Shown in pieces: positions 23,975 through 29,151 of a DNA stretch of 64,000 bases. The stretch comes from a phage. The DNA lies in assembly GCA_023802575.1 (NCBI GenBank), contig GCA_023802575.1_3947.1. One strand, given 5' to 3'. A program made the translations under genes and the position numbers. Numbering within the stretch: position 1 is the first letter of the stretch; each line of letters opens with the position of its first letter. Below the pieces are notes generated by a model. That model worked only from the letters and a program-made list of their open reading frames with translations. It was not told the origin of the DNA and made no database searches.

Positions 23975-24050
23975 TGGAGAATCCGAAGGGACTCGAACCC
24001 TTATAAACCTGTTTTGCAGACAGGCACATAGCCATTTCTGTCACGGATTC
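23975..24050 (-). tRNA. tRNA-Cys (GCA)
   Basis: Minus-strand cloverleaf read by eye: encoded CCA (TGG on plus), T-loop TTCGAGT, anticodon loop CTGCAAA. Confidence 0.65.
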
Positions 24051-24054
24051 AAAT

Positions 24055-24147
24055 TGGAGGAAGATACCAGACTTGAACTGGTACACCGATTTCTCAGCTA
24101 CTGGCAGTTTAGCAAACTGCTCCCTTACCTTTTAGGGTTAATCTTCC
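24055..24147 (-). tRNA. tRNA-Ser (GCT), class II
   Basis: Perfect anticodon stem GCAGT/ACTGC with loop TTGCTAA; long variable arm; T-loop TTCAAGT; CCA encoded. Confidence 0.6.
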
Positions 24148-24148
24148 G

Positions 24149-24883
24149 TTATTTCCGTAATGCGTTCTTCATTTCTGGTGTTGCAATAGTATCAATTACA
24201 CCAGTTTTACAAGAATCATCAAACCAGTCTGGTAAGATACCTGCTAAGAACCCATTGATATTCGTTTTAAGGTACTCTGCAATAAGAGCAGCTTCTTCTT
24301 CAATCATCTGCACAACTTCATCTGCATAAGCTGTAATCTTCGAAATACCTTCATTAATCTTACTAACAGCTTGGTTAGCTAAATCAGAAATAGTATCAAG
24401 ACCTTTGTCAATAGCGTCTTGTAAGTCACTTAATACATCATTAACACCGTCTAGTGCACTGTTAATCGTATCAATAGCTTTTTGACCATACTCTGTAGCA
24501 ACACCCATAATACCACTAAATGGTGTACAACCGACTTGTTCACCTGCTGCACCCATAACATTAGAATAACCTTTTGCTACCTGCATACGTGATGAAAACT
24601 CATCAATGGACTTTTGACCGTAATCCGTCAGCGTTTTGGTAGTTGATGTAGTGCTTGTCAGACTCGTTGTAAAGCTGTTAAGCAGAACTGTTGTAAGTCC
24701 AGCAGCAACAAGTTTATCTTTTATTGTAGGGTCTGTTACAGAGCTAATAGAGCTTACAAGTGATGTAGAGGCAGCTACGGTTCCACCGAGAACTGCTGCA
24801 CCAGTAATAAGGGGATTAGAGAACCCTTTACCAGTTTTTAAGAGATTAAAAATCTCCTTACCTTGTTCTGTCATCTCTTTCAT
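24149..24883 (-). CDS. Hypothetical protein embedded in tRNA array
   Basis: About 244 aa from ATG at 24883 (MKEMTEQGK), with AAAGGTG upstream; the longer start in the ORF track overlaps tRNA-Phe. Confidence 0.5.
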   Translation of the reverse strand: MKEMTEQGKEIFNLLKTGKGFSNPLITGAAVLGGTVAASTSLVSSISSVTDPTIKDKLVAAGLTTVLLNSFTTSLTSTTSTTKTLTDYGQKSIDEFSSRMQVAKGYSNVMGAAGEQVGCTPFSGIMGVATEYGQKAIDTINSALDGVNDVLSDLQDAIDKGLDTISDLANQAVSKINEGISKITAYADEVVQMIEEEAALIAEYLKTNINGFLAGILPDWFDDSCKTGVIDTIATPEMKNALRK

Positions 24884-24899
24884 TAAGCACCTTTGAAAT

Positions 24900-24975
24900 T
24901 GGTAGTCCAGTGGGATTTGAACCCTCTTCTCATGTTTTTCAGACACGCGCTTTAACCATATAAGCTACTTGGACT
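24900..24975 (-). tRNA. tRNA-Phe (GAA)
   Basis: U8-A9, D-stem GCTT/AAGC, anticodon loop CTGAAAA, T-loop TTCAAAT, CCA encoded. Confidence 0.7.
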
Positions 24976-24981
24976 ATAAAT

Positions 24982-25056
24982 TGGGGTGACCTACGGGATT
25001 TGAACCCGTATAGACCATGTTCACAGCATGGGTCATTACCATTTATGATAAGGCCA
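24982..25056 (-). tRNA. tRNA-His (GTG)
   Basis: Anticodon stem CCATG/CATGG, loop CTGTGAA; T-loop TTCAAAT. Confidence 0.65.
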
Positions 25057-25088
25057 CATTTAAGGACTCTCGTAAGAACCCTTAGAAG

Positions 25089-25164
25089 TGGCAGCGGCAT
25101 AAGGATTTGAACCTTAATAAGACAGCTTCAGAGACTGCTGCATTACCAGTTATGCTATACCGCT
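25089..25164 (-). tRNA. tRNA-Gln (CTG)
   Basis: D-stem GCAT/ATGC, anticodon loop CTCTGAA, T-loop TTCAAAT. Confidence 0.55.
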
Positions 25165-25169
25165 AAATT

Positions 25170-25248
25170 TGGTACTCCATATCGGATTCGAACCGATACA
25201 TAACACAGATTTTAAGTCTGGCCTCTCTGCCAATTGGAGTAATGGAGC
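25170..25248 (-). tRNA. tRNA, anticodon unresolved (possibly TAA)
   Basis: Clear acceptor and T-arm (ATCGG TTCGAAT CCGAT) with CCA; anticodon arm could not be folded unambiguously by hand. Confidence 0.45.
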
Positions 25249-25250
25249 AT

Positions 25251-25326
25251 TGGCGGGGGATGTTGGAATTGAACCAACTTCTTCGATTTCAAAGACCGAG
25301 GTTTTAACCTTGTAAACTAATCCCCT
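25251..25326 (-). tRNA. tRNA-Gln (TTG)
   Basis: D-stem GTTT/AAAC, anticodon stem TCGGT/ATCGA, loop CTTTGAA; 1-72 mismatch. Confidence 0.55.
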
Positions 25327-25334
25327 TTAAATCT

Positions 25335-25892
25335 TTACTTTCTTAGTGGATGAATAAAGAATGCCAACATAACTCTTTCCCTTGAGAATGCTCTTTCTTC
25401 TGGGACAACACTTTTTAGCTTCCACCCAATATAAATTCTCCAGTAAAACTGTTTACCAAAGATTTTAATTGATGGGATAAAAGCGAATAATCCCCAAGCA
25501 TTGCTGTTCCACATTAGGAGATAACCTGTCTGATTATCTTCAGGGTTAGAACTTACGTTGATATTACCTTTCCACTTGGTAACATCTTTTACATCTCTTC
25601 CTAATACATGGTAAGAGAAGTTATAAGCTTTGTTTCTCCAGAGCCAACCGACTCTCTGCATATAGACACCAAGCTTACCAATCCATCTAATATTAGCCCA
25701 TCTCTTAACGTGACCTTCATCACCATCAATTGGGTTGTCATAAGTTTCCATCCATCTAAATCCGAAAGGTAAGTGTCCTTTCTTCTCACTGTAAAATGGA
25801 ACTACAAAAGGTGCTAAGATAACTGCTAAGATTGCTGCAAATGGTTCTAACAAAGCTAAGAAAATCCATGAAGCATACTTCAAATATCTCAT
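25335..25892 (-). CDS. Membrane protein embedded in tRNA array
   Basis: 185 aa; N-terminal hydrophobic segment WIFLALLEPFAAILAVILAPFVV; Trp-rich. Confidence 0.5.
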   Translation of the reverse strand: MRYLKYASWIFLALLEPFAAILAVILAPFVVPFYSEKKGHLPFGFRWMETYDNPIDGDEGHVKRWANIRWIGKLGVYMQRVGWLWRNKAYNFSYHVLGRDVKDVTKWKGNINVSSNPEDNQTGYLLMWNSNAWGLFAFIPSIKIFGKQFYWRIYIGWKLKSVVPEERAFSRERVMLAFFIHPLRK

Positions 25893-25911
25893 CTAAATAG
25901 CCTCTTTAAAT

Positions 25912-27555: not shown

Positions 27556-27631
27556 TGGTACTGGTAGGTGGAATCGAACCACCGATGTTCCCTTATCAGG
27601 GGAGTGTTATAACCTTCTTAACTATACCAGC
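27556..27631 (-). tRNA. tRNA-Ile (GAT)
   Basis: Anticodon loop CTGATAA; T-loop TTCGATT; CCA encoded. Confidence 0.65.
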
Positions 27632-27633
27632 AT

Positions 27634-27710
27634 TGGAGGTTCAGGTGAGAATCGAACTCACATTCATAGGGCTTATGAAACCCTTGCATTACCTTATCTG
27701 CGACTGAACC
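27634..27710 (-). tRNA. tRNA-Met (CAT)
   Basis: Perfect acceptor GGTTCAG/CTGAACC; anticodon loop TTCATAA. Confidence 0.65.
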
Positions 27711-27788
27711 AGAATAAGTACCCTAGTTAGAGAAACTGTTGAGTGGGTGTTTCCAGCCGCGCAGGTGTTTCTCAGTTAAGGGTGAATT

Positions 27789-27864
27789 TGGTAGAAGTGG
27801 AGGGATTCGAACCCATCGCCTGTCAGATTAAAAGTCTGCCGCATCACCATTCTGCTACACTTCC
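27789..27864 (-). tRNA. tRNA-Lys (TTT)
   Basis: Perfect anticodon stem GCAGA/TCTGA (reverse complements), loop CTTTTAA; T-loop TTCGAAT. Confidence 0.7.
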
Positions 27865-28323
27865 ATTAAATTATCTTTGTAGATAAGCTACCCAGACTTG
27901 CTTAAGGTCTGTAGCGATGTGCCTTTTTGGGTTTAAATCTAGAATTTACCCATCCACCCTTTGTGGTCGCATACTCACAGGTAAGCTTAATAACTTATCT
28001 ACAAAGATAATTACCAGACCGTTGTTTATCATCTTAAGTGCTACCATTACACCAACTCGACATCTGCCGAGTGAAGGAATCGAACCTTCGCCTTTTCTTT
28101 ACCGGAGAAATAGATTGTTTAAGTTTTTGCTGTAAACGGTCTTCTGTAAATTTGTTGAGCCAGACCAAGTTTTAAATTTTTTCAAAATTAAATTGGCTTG
28201 AAAATATCATACATATTTGCTGAATTTGGTCTTCTGCTCCTTTAAAGAATACTCGTAAGAACTCTTTAAGGGAGGGGCTAAATAGCCCTCTCAAAACATC
28301 ATTTTGAAATACTTATTATAATT

Positions 28324-28401
28324 TGGCGGTTACGAAGGGATTTGAACCCTCATCATCTCCCGTGACAGGGGAGTATTTTAACCAGATTAAACTACATAAC
28401 C
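28324..28401 (-). tRNA. tRNA-Asp (GTC)
   Basis: Anticodon stem CTCCC/GGGAG, loop CTGTCAC; T-loop TTCAAAT. Confidence 0.65.
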
Positions 28402-28406
28402 TTTAT

Positions 28407-28498
28407 TGGTGTGCCGTGTAGGAGTCGAACCTACCGAGTCTCAATGACAAGGGATTTACAGTCCCCACCGCTACCATCTACGGGATAACGACACATTT
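28407..28498 (-). tRNA. tRNA-Tyr (GTA), class II
   Basis: Anticodon stem GGGGA/TCCCT, loop CTGTAAA; long variable arm; T-loop TTCGACT. Confidence 0.6.
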
Positions 28499-28502
28499 AA
28501 TT

Positions 28503-28579
28503 TGGCGGTTAGTCAGGGATTCGAACCCTGTGCCATTCGCTTAACAGGCGACCGCACATACCTTATGTGCTTCCTAACC
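28503..28579 (-). tRNA. tRNA-Asn (GTT)
   Basis: Anticodon loop CTGTTAA flanked by TCGC/GCGA stem; T-stem CAGGG/CCCTG. Confidence 0.65.
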
Positions 28580-28656
28580 TTAATACATTGCCAGACCGTG
28601 TTTTTTCTTTTATCCGCAAAAAGTATTTTGTTGCTGAATACGGTCTTCTGCAAAAT

Positions 28657-28733
28657 TGGAGGCGGGTGCAGGAGTCGAACCTGCCGATACCATGCTAATG
28701 AGACATGTGAGACGCCCTTTCTCTATACCCGCA
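28657..28733 (-). tRNA. tRNA with CAT anticodon (Met or Ile2 type)
   Basis: D-stem GAGA/TCTC, anticodon stem CATGT/GCATG, loop CTCATTA; 1-72 mismatch. Confidence 0.55.
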
Positions 28734-28824
28734 ATTCTTAATGACCAGACCAAATCTCTTCTTTGTCCGATTTACCTTCAGATGAATAAGATTAAGTTTG
28801 CTGTAATTGGTCTTCTGTCAAAAC

Positions 28825-28902
28825 TGGCGTTCCAGAAGGGATTTGAACCCTCAGATATCCACTTTGAAAGAGTGGTGACTTTACCATTTTGTCTACTGGA
28901 AC
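28825..28902 (-). tRNA. tRNA-Glu (TTC)
   Basis: Perfect acceptor GTTCCAG/CTGGAAC; anticodon stem CCACT/AGTGG, loop CTTTCAA. Confidence 0.7.
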
Positions 28903-28909
28903 ATTAATT

Positions 28910-28986
28910 TGGTCTCTGTTGGAGGACTTGAACCTCCGGCCTTACCGCCCCAAACGGAACGCTCTACCAAGCTGAGCTAAACAGAG
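28910..28986 (-). tRNA. tRNA-Pro (TGG)
   Basis: Perfect acceptor CTCTGTT/AACAGAG; D-arm GCTC AGCTTGGTA GAGC; anticodon loop TTTGGGG. Confidence 0.7.
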
Positions 28987-29151
28987 ATAAACTTTTCAAA
29001 CTCTATGTAACCACTTTAACATTATTTTTTAGTGGTTGTCAAGAACTTTTTTAAAATATTTTTCAGTATCTTAGAAAAGCTCTCATTTCGTTTCTATGTA
29101 GAACATATTAAAGGGTATTAAACATATTGTCAATACCCTTTTTAAAACTTT

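Follow-up and report, generated by a model that had tools for sequence, protein, structure and literature searches.

The tRNA gene cluster of Felix O1 was described with its genome (Whichard et al. 2010, PMC3185647) as a group of 22 tRNAs, two of them 'pseudo', and phage-versus-host codon usage was offered as its rationale; a later comparison of Felixounavirus gives 17–23 tRNAs per genome (PMC8300805). The region considered here occupies positions 23,975 to 29,151 of a 64,000 nt stretch of phage DNA (contig GCA_023802575.1_3947.1; the whole stretch is called the window below). It is the tRNA gene cluster of a Felixounavirus, i.e., a Felix O1-like myovirus of E. coli, and the array as such is already known. 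The 5.2 kb between 23900 and 29100 are 97.9% identical to Escherichia phage vB_EcoM_ULIM8, and at least 80% of this stretch is covered in 242 phage records with the same tRNAs annotated, nearly all of them from Felixounavirus or Mooglevirus phages of E. coli, Salmonella, Shigella or Citrobacter. In the relatives fjerdesal, Mordin and ESh21 the locus is a run of tRNAs with two to three small open reading frames (ORFs), lying between a gene annotated as 'vWFA/DUF2828' and the terminase.

A second described system bears on this locus. Under the definition of Chen et al. 2014 (PMC4201824), a bacterial YrlA is a Y RNA whose gene shares the strand of Ro60 and lies no more than 4 kb from it; the Rsr-binding stem is followed by V, the T arm, a closed 'acceptor' stem-loop and the D arm. 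Shorter YrlB RNAs are without the tRNA part. The YrlA of M. smegmatis is cut by RNase P and receives CCA. That survey searched TROVE-annotated genomes only, and its authors cautioned that adjacent tRNAs can mimic YrlA (PMC4201824).

The window shares with the Felix O1 and other Felixounavirus clusters its position (vWA/DUF2828 gene to terminase), tRNA order, embedded ORFs and codon rationale, but the published annotations examined give tRNAs and pseudo-tRNAs without Y-like RNAs, the Trp-type gene or a Ro60 label. The explanation put forward here, and considered probable as a whole, is that of a Felixounavirus array that carries minimalist Leu tRNAs together with Y-like RNAs partnering a Ro60-like protein. 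The initial annotation of the array had proposed about 27 minus-strand tRNAs with two protein genes (244 and 185 aa) among them. ARAGORN finds 26 tRNAs at the same coordinates (23975–28986), to which the Trp-type gene is added, with an identical set of anticodons except for Trp, and both protein genes are real, with matches to Pfam DUF7217 and DUF7338. That interpretation is supported but incomplete, not wrong: the claims it made hold, while the stretches between tRNAs were taken as spacers, and at least four of these belong to a structured RNA family.

Genes for tRNAs were detected with ARAGORN and with Rfam RF00005 (gathering score 29), the Rfam search being run also at a relaxed threshold of E ≤ 10. 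The RF00005 threshold was passed by 24 of the 26 ARAGORN tRNAs, at 31–65 bits; tRNA-Tyr and the first of two genes with a CAT anticodon (CAT no. 1) pass ARAGORN only, and the Trp-type gene passes neither detector. A 3′ CCA is encoded in 26 of the 27 genes (Trp-type counted), the exception being Ser(TGA). Anticodons with U34 are abundant (TCT, TGG, TGC, TGT, TAC, TAA, TAG, TGA, TCC, TTG, TTT and TTC) and, in the comparison of anticodons with codon usage that had been suggested as a check, fit the A-ending codons preferred in 24 long ORFs of the window (AGA, 42% of Arg; CCA, 55% of Pro; GCA, 43% of Ala; ACA, 36% of Thr; GUA, 32% of Val; UUA, 26% of Leu). The A-ending codons favoured by the phage (AGA, CCA, GCA etc.) are much rarer in E. 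coli. Since U34 anticodons read the A-ending codons preferred by this AT-rich phage, the array would supplement the host tRNA pool, and the 26 tRNAs plus the aberrant Trp-type gene would cover all 20 amino acids, if the latter works.

Three genes with Leu anticodons (TAA, CAA and TAG) had been noted as apparently without a long variable arm, either by mis-folding or as something unusual. The ARAGORN drawings agree with the arm-less form, with variable loops of 7 nt (TAA), 5–6 nt (CAA) and 4 nt (TAG) and no extra arm, and neither ARAGORN nor Rfam reassigned the genes to class II with other boundaries. Each is 75–76 nt plus CCA and is matched end-to-end by the 71-position Rfam model (47.5, 43.6 and 40.0 bits, respectively); the variable stem-loop of at least 10 nt that marks class II tRNA-Leu is lacking in all three. 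Leu(TAA) and Leu(CAA) have a 3 bp D stem and an 11 nt D loop, CAAUUGGCAGA, with A14, A15, G18G19 and A20a, the D loop of Leu(TAG) is 9 nt, and A73 and U48 (the U directly 5′ of the T stem) are found in all three. The D loop of E. coli tRNALeu is GAAUUGGUAGA, and the phage Leu(TAA)/(CAA) loop has the same length and pattern. The leucyl-tRNA synthetase (LeuRS) of E. coli recognises A73, A15–U48, G18G19 and A20a, while the sequence and fold of the long arm are immaterial to it and arm-less variants are active (PMC9976931).

Judged from their sequences, the window Leu genes carry this identity set (A73, the A15–U48 Levitt pair, G18G19 and A20a), and because the elements read by LeuRS are retained, charging by the host enzyme can be inferred; most likely the three genes are natural 'minimalist' tRNALeu, working and charged with leucine by host LeuRS. 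A survey of the 31 unique Leu genes from all loci retrieved found A73 in 29 of the 30 that end in CCA, a Leu-type D loop in 28 of the 31 and a length of 77–79 nt in 30. Arm-less tRNA-Leu is present in every lineage sampled (Felix and Moogle phages, Erwinia phage Coenus, Yersinia phage P778 and vibriophage phi-pp2), a matching 77 nt tRNA-Leu was also found in T5-like phages, and long arms are retained in Ser (85–95 nt) and Tyr (81–88 nt) at the same loci. The phage genes resemble the minimalist or arm-less tRNALeu known as E. coli LeuRS variants and from animal mitochondria (PMC9976931) in having their identity in A73 and the D/T-loop core; they differ in being natural, in serving bacterial cytoplasmic translation and in occurring in all sampled phage lineages. 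Literature searches for arm-less phage tRNALeu did not find a description, and one may still exist. Used with a bacterial LeuRS, as is most likely, arm-less tRNALeu genes bear out in nature the 'minimalist tRNALeu' biochemistry; they also call for caution in annotation pipelines.

The Trp candidate had been described as about 83 nt long with an enlarged D region, and an 83 nt gene is indeed conserved, with seven covarying pairs. ARAGORN does not call it even at a relaxed threshold, and its sole Rfam match is to tRNA-Sec (23 bits, E = 0.38), yet it is kept in Felixounavirus, Mooglevirus, Yersinia phage P778 and a 62%-identity relative (L031). The structure obtained by RNAalifold from eight distinct sequences has an 8 bp acceptor stem and a 4 bp T stem (alternatively 7/5, with an A49–C65 mismatch), a conserved 9 nt linker, AUGUUAAGA, before a 3 bp D stem (2 nt in normal tRNAs), and a 5 bp anticodon stem closed by a 9 nt loop, CCUCCAAAA, with the consensus C-Y-U-C-C-A-A-M-M. 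Double changes that keep pairing occur at four pairs of the anticodon stem, one of the D stem and two of the acceptor stem. The CCA triplet is invariant in the loop, G73 is kept, A1–U72 is found in most sequences, and the CCA end is encoded. The CCA anticodon and G73 are identity elements for the tryptophanyl-tRNA synthetase (TrpRS) of E. coli. A role in Trp identity is also reported for A1–U72 (PMC9976931). All three elements are present in the window gene; the canonical 7 nt loop and the 2 nt linker at positions 8–9 are absent. Erwinia phage Coenus has an ordinary 73 nt tRNA-Trp instead.

Phage clusters have been reported to contain tRNAs with an 8/4 branch of Ser and His type; among the cases described from bacteria and phages there are also variants for Cys and Sec (Mukai et al. 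2017, PMC5389517). The Trp-type gene resembles these 'allo'-type tRNAs in the 12 bp acceptor/T branch split 8/4 and in its location in a phage tRNA cluster, and differs in the CCA anticodon, the 9 nt linker, the 9 nt anticodon loop and the possible 7/5 reading. A 9 nt anticodon loop and a 9 nt linker could well disable decoding, which counts against a role in the array's coverage of all amino acids, and it is conceivable, if rather doubtful, that the gene is non-functional in translation. An alternative is that the class-I-shaped Leu tRNAs and the Trp-type gene do not decode at all and are pseudogenes, or else act as decoys for host enzymes that cleave anticodons or modify tRNAs. The Leu genes have the lowest Rfam scores of the class I set (40–47.5 bits), the Trp-type gene with its 9 nt loop and 9 nt insertion is missed by both detectors, and two pseudo-tRNAs are listed for Felix O1 (PMC3185647). 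Against this, Leu identity elements occur in nearly all of the 31 unique genes across many lineages, CCA ends are encoded, the phage makes frequent use of UUA and CUA codons, the compensatory changes and the invariant CCA triplet of the Trp-type loop point to selection, and 8/4-branch tRNAs are known from phages (PMC5389517), so that a decoy or pseudogene status is unlikely. Neither the arm-less Leu tRNAs nor the aberrant Trp-type gene is an artefact, and both are moderately unusual; few non-canonical phage tRNAs are known, and the Trp-type gene extends their range by a new shape.

Four of the spaces between tRNAs, all in the part of the array nearest the upstream promoter-like sites, contain related RNA elements, named Y1 to Y4. 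All share the 5′ end NNNC-AGA-AGACC(AA or GU)-NUN-CAGCAA and the 3′ end (UU or AC)GGUCU-G-GNNN, which form a module of an outer helix of 3–4 bp, an A-N-A bulge opposite a single purine and a 7 bp inner helix, followed 3 nt on by an invariant CAGCAA. In Y1, for example, the outer helix TGAC/GTCA, the AGA bulge and the inner helix AGACCAA/TTGGTCT are followed by TTACAGCAA. The outer helices differ in a compensatory manner (UGAC/GUCA, UUGC/GCAA, GAGC/GCUC and UUAC/GUAA), as do the last two pairs of the inner helix, and the minimum free energy (MFE) folds of all four show 3–4 bp, a 3 nt AGA bulge opposite a single G, and then 7–8 bp. A pattern scan for the module over both strands of the 64 kb window returned Y1–Y4 and one spurious match of 29 nt. 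Y1 fully occupies the space from tRNA-Glu to CAT no. 1, and Y2 that from CAT no. 1 to tRNA-Asn. The four RNAs lie 332–1141 nt downstream of the Ro60-like gene on the same strand, within the 4 kb by which YrlA is recognised, and their copies hold orthologous positions across genera. Rfam searches of the window at both thresholds gave the Y-like RNAs solely chance-level matches to Dictyostelium Class I RNA and weak tmRNA matches. On this comparative evidence, Y1–Y4 are very probably real structured transcripts; they are unannotated in the Felixounavirus records examined and are the new part of the array.

While Y1–Y3 are short, Y4 encloses the arms of a tRNA in the order 5′ closing strand, CAGCAA, V hairpin, T arm, closed acceptor-like hairpin, TG, D arm and 3′ closing strand. 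The T arm is GAAGGTTCGATTCCTTC (GAAGG-UUCGAUU-CCUUC), the D arm GTGTAATGGTAGCAC (GUGU-AAUGGUA-GCAC), and the closed acceptor-like hairpin has 7 bp (ACTCGGC/AGAT/GTCGAGT). Read from its sequence, Y4 has the form of a circularly permuted tRNA, whose ends lie at the anticodon and whose acceptor is closed. In close relatives the closed acceptor hairpin reads ACUCGGC/GUCGAGU, ACACG/CGUGU or ACCCUUC/GAAGGGU; RNAalifold recovers every helix of Y4 among these relatives, with three compensatory pairs in this hairpin, and the MFE fold agrees. A 'dimeric tRNA' artefact, with a T arm placed by chance beside the D arm of the next tRNA, is ruled out because both the closed acceptor stem and the closing helix covary.

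The gene directly upstream of the array, on the same strand, encodes a protein of 471 aa. Neither phmmer nor a 46-member profile matched it to any PDB sequence, Ro60 included. An AlphaFold (AF2) model built from the alignment of homologs (mean pLDDT 89, pTM 0.89) was compared with PDB structures by Foldseek, and the top 12 matches were all full-length Ro60 (E 2e-8 to 6e-7, TM 0.37–0.65, probability 1.0); beyond these 12, isolated vWA domains only were matched. The best was Xenopus Ro60 (2i91_A; E 2.4e-8, TMq 0.65), and the others included further Xenopus structures (1yvp, 1yvr), human Ro60 complexes (9nfa, 9nep, 9nf8), Deinococcus Rsr (2nvo) and the Ro60 of Thermus phage phiLo (9kop, 9l5y). 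The MIDAS-type residues D279, S281, S283, T349 and D381 (DxSxS...T...D) are invariant in 46 homologs. Structurally, the predicted protein is clearly a Ro60 fold (HEAT-repeat ring plus vWA/MIDAS) that is highly diverged in sequence, and the relationship became visible because folds were compared, sequence searches having given nothing. Ro60 proteins bind Y RNA on their outer surface and misfolded RNA in the central cavity.

DUF2828-type proteins occur in at least 710 phage records, from Felix O1-like and KVP40-like phages, phages of Listeria, Staphylococcus, Enterococcus and Campylobacter, and mycobacteriophages. Mycobacteriophage homologs with 32–35% identity carry the SEA-PHAGES label 'Ro-like RNA binding protein'; the Ro-like nature is thus recognised at annotation level in mycobacteriophages, and not in the Felixounavirus records and papers examined. 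A full-text search for DUF2828 returned only unrelated plant and animal papers, and no paper was found that deals both with Felix O1 and with Ro60, Y RNA or TROVE. Other literature searches on Ro and phages yielded just the phiLo study and a review of jumbo phages.

If the Y-like RNAs partner this protein, then the module might be expected beside homologous genes elsewhere. A diverse set of 75 viral contigs was chosen by the protein alone (38–47% identity), with 6 kb taken on each side of the gene. The module was present in 44 of these 75 loci, with 77 matches on the gene strand against 6 on the opposite one, compared with 11 in shuffled sequence (both strands together). A slightly wider re-scan placed 42 of 83 matches within 300 nt of the gene and 63 within 1 kb. 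In Yersinia phage P778, where the protein is 53% identical, the module has diverged to ...ACA-GGACUGU-UUACAGCAA...ACAGUCC-A..., with the first inner pair changed from A–U to G–C.

A covariance model (R1) built exclusively from Felix and Moogle Y4 sequences was searched over about 1 Mb and gave 41 matches at E ≤ 1, all on the gene strand. Many of them are full-length tRNA mimics with unrelated acceptor stems (loci L057, at 64 bits, L108, L076, L055, L058, L111 and L043), and in vibriophage phi-pp2 a full-length match fills the space between tRNA-Gln and tRNA-Thr. Beyond these 41, the model also gave matches in mycobacteriophages Loadrie (46.9 bits) and MiniMac, 100–140 nt downstream of the Ro-like gene, directly 3′ of the gene in a Staphylococcus phage, 190 nt upstream of it in Listeria phage LMTA-57, and twice upstream in Sinorhizobium phage phiM19. 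In the alignment of the 41 matches, 94.6% of cells are paired against 58.8% in shuffled alignments. Double changes are found at 25 of the 26 pairs, and the score for covariation is 0.489 against 0.12 for shuffles and 0.04–0.07 for slid partners. Rfam searches of 11 distant loci found tRNAs and one group I intron, and no family for the module.

Some module copies in uncultured phages form subclasses. One has the conserved interior CCUUUCUGGAGGGGAAAGCAAAAACUCGCC instead of a tRNA mimic (L039 5277, L041 3134, L043 150, L047 1266, L049 1411 and L057 5735, all on the plus strand), and another, of 120–220 nt, ends in GUCCCUUACACCACUCUG (L039 4841, L047 629 and L049 687). At L069 5735–5832 a tRNA-like domain inside the module has its arms in the normal, unpermuted order (Rfam tRNA 52.9 bits).

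The arrangement in the window has much in common with bacterial Rsr and its YrlA/YrlB RNAs (PMC4201824; RF02553): the RNAs lie no more than about 1 kb from a Ro60-fold gene on the same strand, several paralogous RNAs share a bulged closing stem, Y4 has the YrlA arm order (V, T arm, closed acceptor, D arm) with covarying helices, and Y1–Y3, short and without a tRNA domain, resemble YrlB. It differs in that the phage RNAs carry an A-N-A bulge and CAGCAA in place of GNCGAAN0-1G, the protein is of DUF2828 type without a TROVE match, and the RNAs sit in a tRNA array and not in an rsr-rtcBA operon. Thermus phage phiLo offers a phage example (PMC12135203; 9KOP, 9L5Y), with a Ro60 ring encoded beside the stem-bulge-stem RNAs Yrl1 and Yrl2, and the match between model and structure has a TM of about 0.54; the phiLo Ro60 is, however, a recognisable TROVE protein, its Yrls have a CGAA bulge with no tRNA mimic reported, and there is no tRNA array. 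The locus is classed as one that would work like a Ro60–Y RNA system, a diverged branch outside the curated YrlA and TROVE families, because neither the YrlA model and motif nor the TROVE signature is matched. As far as searchable literature and Rfam show, the pairing of this Y-like RNA family with a DUF2828-type Ro60 is undescribed, and some DUF2828-type phages may already be among the 22 listed by Chen et al.

Several observations weigh against this assignment. The Rfam YrlA model (RF02553) does not match Y4 at E ≤ 10, and on the MiniMac RNA it scores 37.7 bits, over the tRNA-like part only, against a threshold of 69. The YrlA motif GNCGAAN0-1G is not in the Y-like RNAs, whose 5′ strand reads RCAGAAGACC, and a Pfam scan of the 471 aa protein at E ≤ 0.1 gives DUF2828 and DUF7788 alone, with the TROVE signature absent. 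The pattern scan found no module in 31 of the 75 diverse loci. Outer helix pairing in the diverse set is no better than in controls (16.7% against 15.4%), and the outer helix is claimed, from sequence comparison, solely for the Felix, Moogle and P778 group. Since the R1 alignment follows the structure of the model, its pairing is inflated; the single-sequence fold z-scores of Y1, Y3 and Y4 are unremarkable (−1.0 to −1.6); and the promoter and terminator motifs of the array come from a consensus scan in which the total count is not above that of shuffles. The link from RNAs to protein is one of guilt by association and comparative evidence, and a partnership between the two is accordingly regarded as somewhat likely.

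The elements might otherwise be hairpins for processing or insulation (RNase III/E sites, stabilisers) or decayed tRNAs, with the Ro-like neighbour a coincidence. They do sit exactly in inter-tRNA spacers, Y4 has tRNA-derived T and D arms, adjacent tRNAs are known to mimic YrlA (PMC4201824), and the single-sequence fold scores are weak. A coincidence of this kind is nevertheless quite improbable: the module stands beside homologous genes with no tRNA within 6 kb (any tRNA was found in just 27 of the 75 loci, against 44 with the module) and directly after the gene in mycobacteriophages, the matches are strand-specific and near the gene, and the closed acceptor stem is kept by compensatory changes, which would not be expected of two unrelated adjacent tRNAs. 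The tRNA array of Erwinia phage Coenus, with 24 kb around it, has no module and weak model matches only (E 0.18–0.47); with no ORF big enough for a Ro-like gene in the first 13.5 kb of the 24 kb covered, it serves as an incomplete negative control. That the elements act as DNA or in cis, as sites for recombination or mobility of tRNA cassettes (like T4 PeSLs or miniature inverted-repeat elements) or as operators or leaders of the Ro-like gene, is very improbable, since, despite several dispersed copies with terminal inverted repeats, a tRNA content that varies among Felixounaviruses and homing endonuclease genes inserted here in some relatives, the CAGCAA and A-N-A bulge are asymmetric and one-stranded (77 against 6), the G–U pairs found in helices of the R1 alignment fit RNA and not DNA, the interiors hold tRNA-like folds with T-loop and D-loop consensus, and the copies keep orthologous positions across genera.

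As Y RNAs of the Ro60-like protein, Y1–Y4 would be made together with the tRNAs. The array would be read on the minus strand from sigma-70-type promoters, ending at a terminator-like hairpin near 23800, and the Y-like RNAs would be co-transcribed from the promoter-like sites at 29133–29013. Because tRNAs flank them, they could be freed from the precursor by tRNA-processing enzymes, through RNase P and 3′ processing of the neighbouring tRNAs, and the 471 aa protein would then bind the closing module. Y4, with its 7 bp closed acceptor stem, could itself be cut by RNase P and CCA-tailed, like the YrlA of M. smegmatis. In the infected cell, the targets of the particle may be structured RNA or tRNA; by analogy with Deinococcus Rsr/Y RNA/PNPase and with phiLo Ro60 the particle might tether or modulate a host 3′–5′ exoribonuclease, or, again by analogy, take part in tRNA surveillance or repair. 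Any one of these downstream functions is tentative, and taken singly doubtful at best.

A wider proposal, for which the chances seem evenly balanced, is that DUF2828-type proteins form a large unrecognised branch of Ro60 in at least 710 phages, each with its own Y RNAs (stem, A-N-A bulge, stem, CAGCAA); these would often be tRNA mimics, often placed in tRNA arrays for release by host enzymes, and the ribonucleoprotein would protect, repair or police tRNAs or capture host exoribonucleases. If the RNAs do partner the DUF2828 protein, then phage Ro60–Y RNA particles would be far commoner than the roughly two dozen cases from TROVE-annotated genomes, and could be tested in easy models, namely Felix O1 with Salmonella and Felixounaviruses with E. 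coli K-12. E. coli K-12 is not known to have a Ro of its own. The recurrent adjacency to tRNA genes and an RtcB ligase in Listeria phages would point to a role in the contest between phage and host over tRNA integrity (anticodon nucleases).

In Listeria phage LMTA-57 (L116 2959–7019), a gene for an RtcB-type tRNA-splicing ligase lies 1.3 kb downstream of the Ro-like gene, which recalls the bacterial rsr-yrlA-rtcBA operon, and in Sinorhizobium phage phiM19 (L119 1654–4359) the Ro-like gene adjoins one for an Appr-1-p processing (macro) enzyme; tRNA genes are found nearby. The ligase, the macro enzyme and the tRNA neighbours are an RNA-repair context for the Ro-like protein family. A DUF5681 gene (123 aa; window 30649–31020, minus strand) lies directly upstream of the Ro-like gene in the window, keeps this position in Mordin, ESh21, P778 and L031, and may belong to the Ro-like module.

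Table 1. Features of the tRNA array and its upstream gene, by position in the window.
Feature	Position	Strand	Support
Terminator-like hairpin + T run 3′ of last tRNA	23795..23812	-	consensus scan only
tRNA-Cys(GCA)	23975..24050	-	ARAGORN; Rfam 56.4 bits
tRNA-Ser(GCT), class II	24055..24147	-	ARAGORN; Rfam 46.2 bits
Coding sequence, 244 aa, DUF7217 (E 2e-90), PHROG 2114	24149..24883	-	Pfam, PHROGs
tRNA-Phe(GAA)	24900..24975	-	ARAGORN; Rfam 45.0 bits
tRNA-His(GTG)	24982..25057	-	ARAGORN; Rfam 53.3 bits
tRNA-Gln(CTG)	25089..25164	-	ARAGORN; Rfam 61.2 bits
tRNA-Leu(TAA), class-I-shaped, 7 nt variable loop, D loop CAATTGGCAGA, A73	25170..25248	-	ARAGORN; Rfam 47.5 bits
tRNA-Gln(TTG)	25251..25326	-	ARAGORN; Rfam 56.6 bits
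Coding sequence, 185 aa, DUF7338 (E 2e-61), PHROG 2143, hydrophobic N-terminus	25335..25892	-	Pfam, PHROGs
tRNA-Arg(ACG)	25912..25987	-	ARAGORN; Rfam 59.8 bits
tRNA-Leu(CAA), class-I-shaped, D loop CAATTGGCAGA	25993..26070	-	ARAGORN; Rfam 43.6 bits
tRNA-Val(TAC)	26072..26146	-	ARAGORN; Rfam 60.0 bits
tRNA-Thr(TGT)	26244..26319	-	ARAGORN; Rfam 58.4 bits
tRNA-Gly(TCC)	26327..26401	-	ARAGORN; Rfam 59.6 bits
tRNA-Ala(TGC)	26408..26483	-	ARAGORN; Rfam 56.9 bits
tRNA-Lys(CTT)	26490..26565	-	ARAGORN; Rfam 56.9 bits
tRNA-Leu(TAG), class-I-shaped, 4 nt variable loop	26573..26650	-	ARAGORN; Rfam 40.0 bits
tRNA-Ser(TGA), class II, no encoded CCA	26905..26994	-	ARAGORN; Rfam 31.1 bits
Aberrant Trp-type tRNA-like gene, 83 nt	27008..27090	-	conservation + covariation; ARAGORN and Rfam tRNA miss it
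tRNA-Arg(TCT)	27233..27309	-	ARAGORN; Rfam 64.1 bits
Internal sigma-70-like promoter, TTGACA-17-TATAGT, 11/12 matches	27512..27540	-	consensus scan
tRNA-Ile(GAT)	27556..27631	-	ARAGORN; Rfam 62.3 bits
tRNA(CAT) no. 2	27634..27710	-	ARAGORN; Rfam 55.3 bits
Hairpin RNA candidate, core GCGGCTGGAAACACCCAC (GCGGCUGGAAACACCCAC), fills Lys(TTT)–CAT no. 2 spacer	27711..27788	-	z-score −4.2
tRNA-Lys(TTT)	27789..27864	-	ARAGORN; Rfam 54.4 bits
146 nt structured RNA candidate, ~20 bp closing stem	27865..28010	-	fold z-score −5.7; covariation
Y-like RNA 4 (Y4), YrlA-style permuted tRNA mimic, outer helix TTAC/GTAA	28011..28149	-	module, RNAalifold, MFE fold
Y-like RNA 3 (Y3), outer helix GAGC/GCTC	28157..28239	-	shared module; R1 no match at E ≤ 1
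tRNA-Asp(GTC)	28324..28401	-	ARAGORN; Rfam 65.2 bits
tRNA-Tyr(GTA), class II, long variable arm kept	28407..28494	-	ARAGORN; Rfam tRNA-Sec only, 29.6 bits
tRNA-Asn(GTT)	28503..28579	-	ARAGORN; Rfam 48.0 bits
Y-like RNA 2 (Y2), outer helix TTGC/GCAA	28588..28653	-	R1 42.4 bits; fold z-score −2.8
tRNA(CAT) no. 1, atypical	28657..28733	-	ARAGORN only
Y-like RNA 1 (Y1), short interior	28742..28820	-	shared module; covariance model R1 45.4 bits, E 2.7e-6
tRNA-Glu(TTC)	28825..28902	-	ARAGORN; Rfam 60.4 bits
tRNA-Pro(TGG)	28910..28986	-	ARAGORN; Rfam 57.7 bits
Sigma-70-like promoter, TTGACA-18-TAAAGT + TG extension, ahead of tRNA-Pro	29013..29042	-	consensus scan, weak
Second sigma-70-like promoter	29105-29133	-	consensus scan, weak
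471 aa Ro60-like protein gene, DUF2828 + DUF7788/vWA, PHROG 850 'RNA-binding protein'	29152..30567	-	Pfam, PHROG, AF2/Foldseek

The gene CAT no. 1 (28657–28733) is atypical, with no Rfam match even at E ≤ 10, and is annotated as tRNA-Met in relatives. It has a U1/C72 mismatch above G2-C3-G4-G5-G6, a pyrimidine (U) at position 37 and U73. Its acceptor, with the 1:72 mismatch over G2-C3-G4-G5-G6, resembles that of the E. coli initiator. The anticodon stem is without the three G–C pairs of the initiator. The gene may be Met, initiator-like, Ile2 or a decoy.

Of the two embedded proteins, neither is given a function by PHROGs. The 244 aa length of the DUF7217 protein is counted from an ATG, the mechanical ORF beginning further upstream at a GTG inside tRNA-Phe, and the gene has the same position in the arrays of Yersinia phage P778 and L031.

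Further structured elements lie between the tRNAs. The 146 nt candidate, placed between Y4 and tRNA-Lys(TTT), has internal hairpins, one with the loop CUUAAGCAAG, and its long stem and two inner helices keep pairing through six double changes between the Felix and Moogle clades. Rfam gave no match at E ≤ 10, and it is possibly another small RNA of the array. The core of the hairpin at 27711–27788 is conserved, with differing closing stems, in Moogle-type phages, P778 (L030 11901–11982) and L031. Repeated hairpins occur in larger spacers at about 28245–28277 and 25047–25078, with a similar one at about 27318–27348 (all minus strand); GUUCUUACGAG or UUUCUAAGAGAG recurs in their loops, the stems are, for example, CUUUAAAGA/UCUUUAAAG, and the hairpins are possibly processing or regulatory sites.

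About 200 nt (27310–27511, minus strand) between the best promoter-like site of the region (27540–27512) and tRNA-Arg(TCT) contain no ORF and no tRNA call, and gave sub-threshold Rfam tmRNA matches only (15.7 and 29.2 bits); a further gap, of 254 nt, lies at 26651–26904. The array of Yersinia phage vB_YenM_P778 has a gap of 691 nt (L030 10970–11660) with two orphan 3′ halves, each a T arm and acceptor; one of these has a matching 5′ half (GCGGGUG...) some 100 nt upstream, an arrangement that suggests an intron-containing or split tRNA gene.

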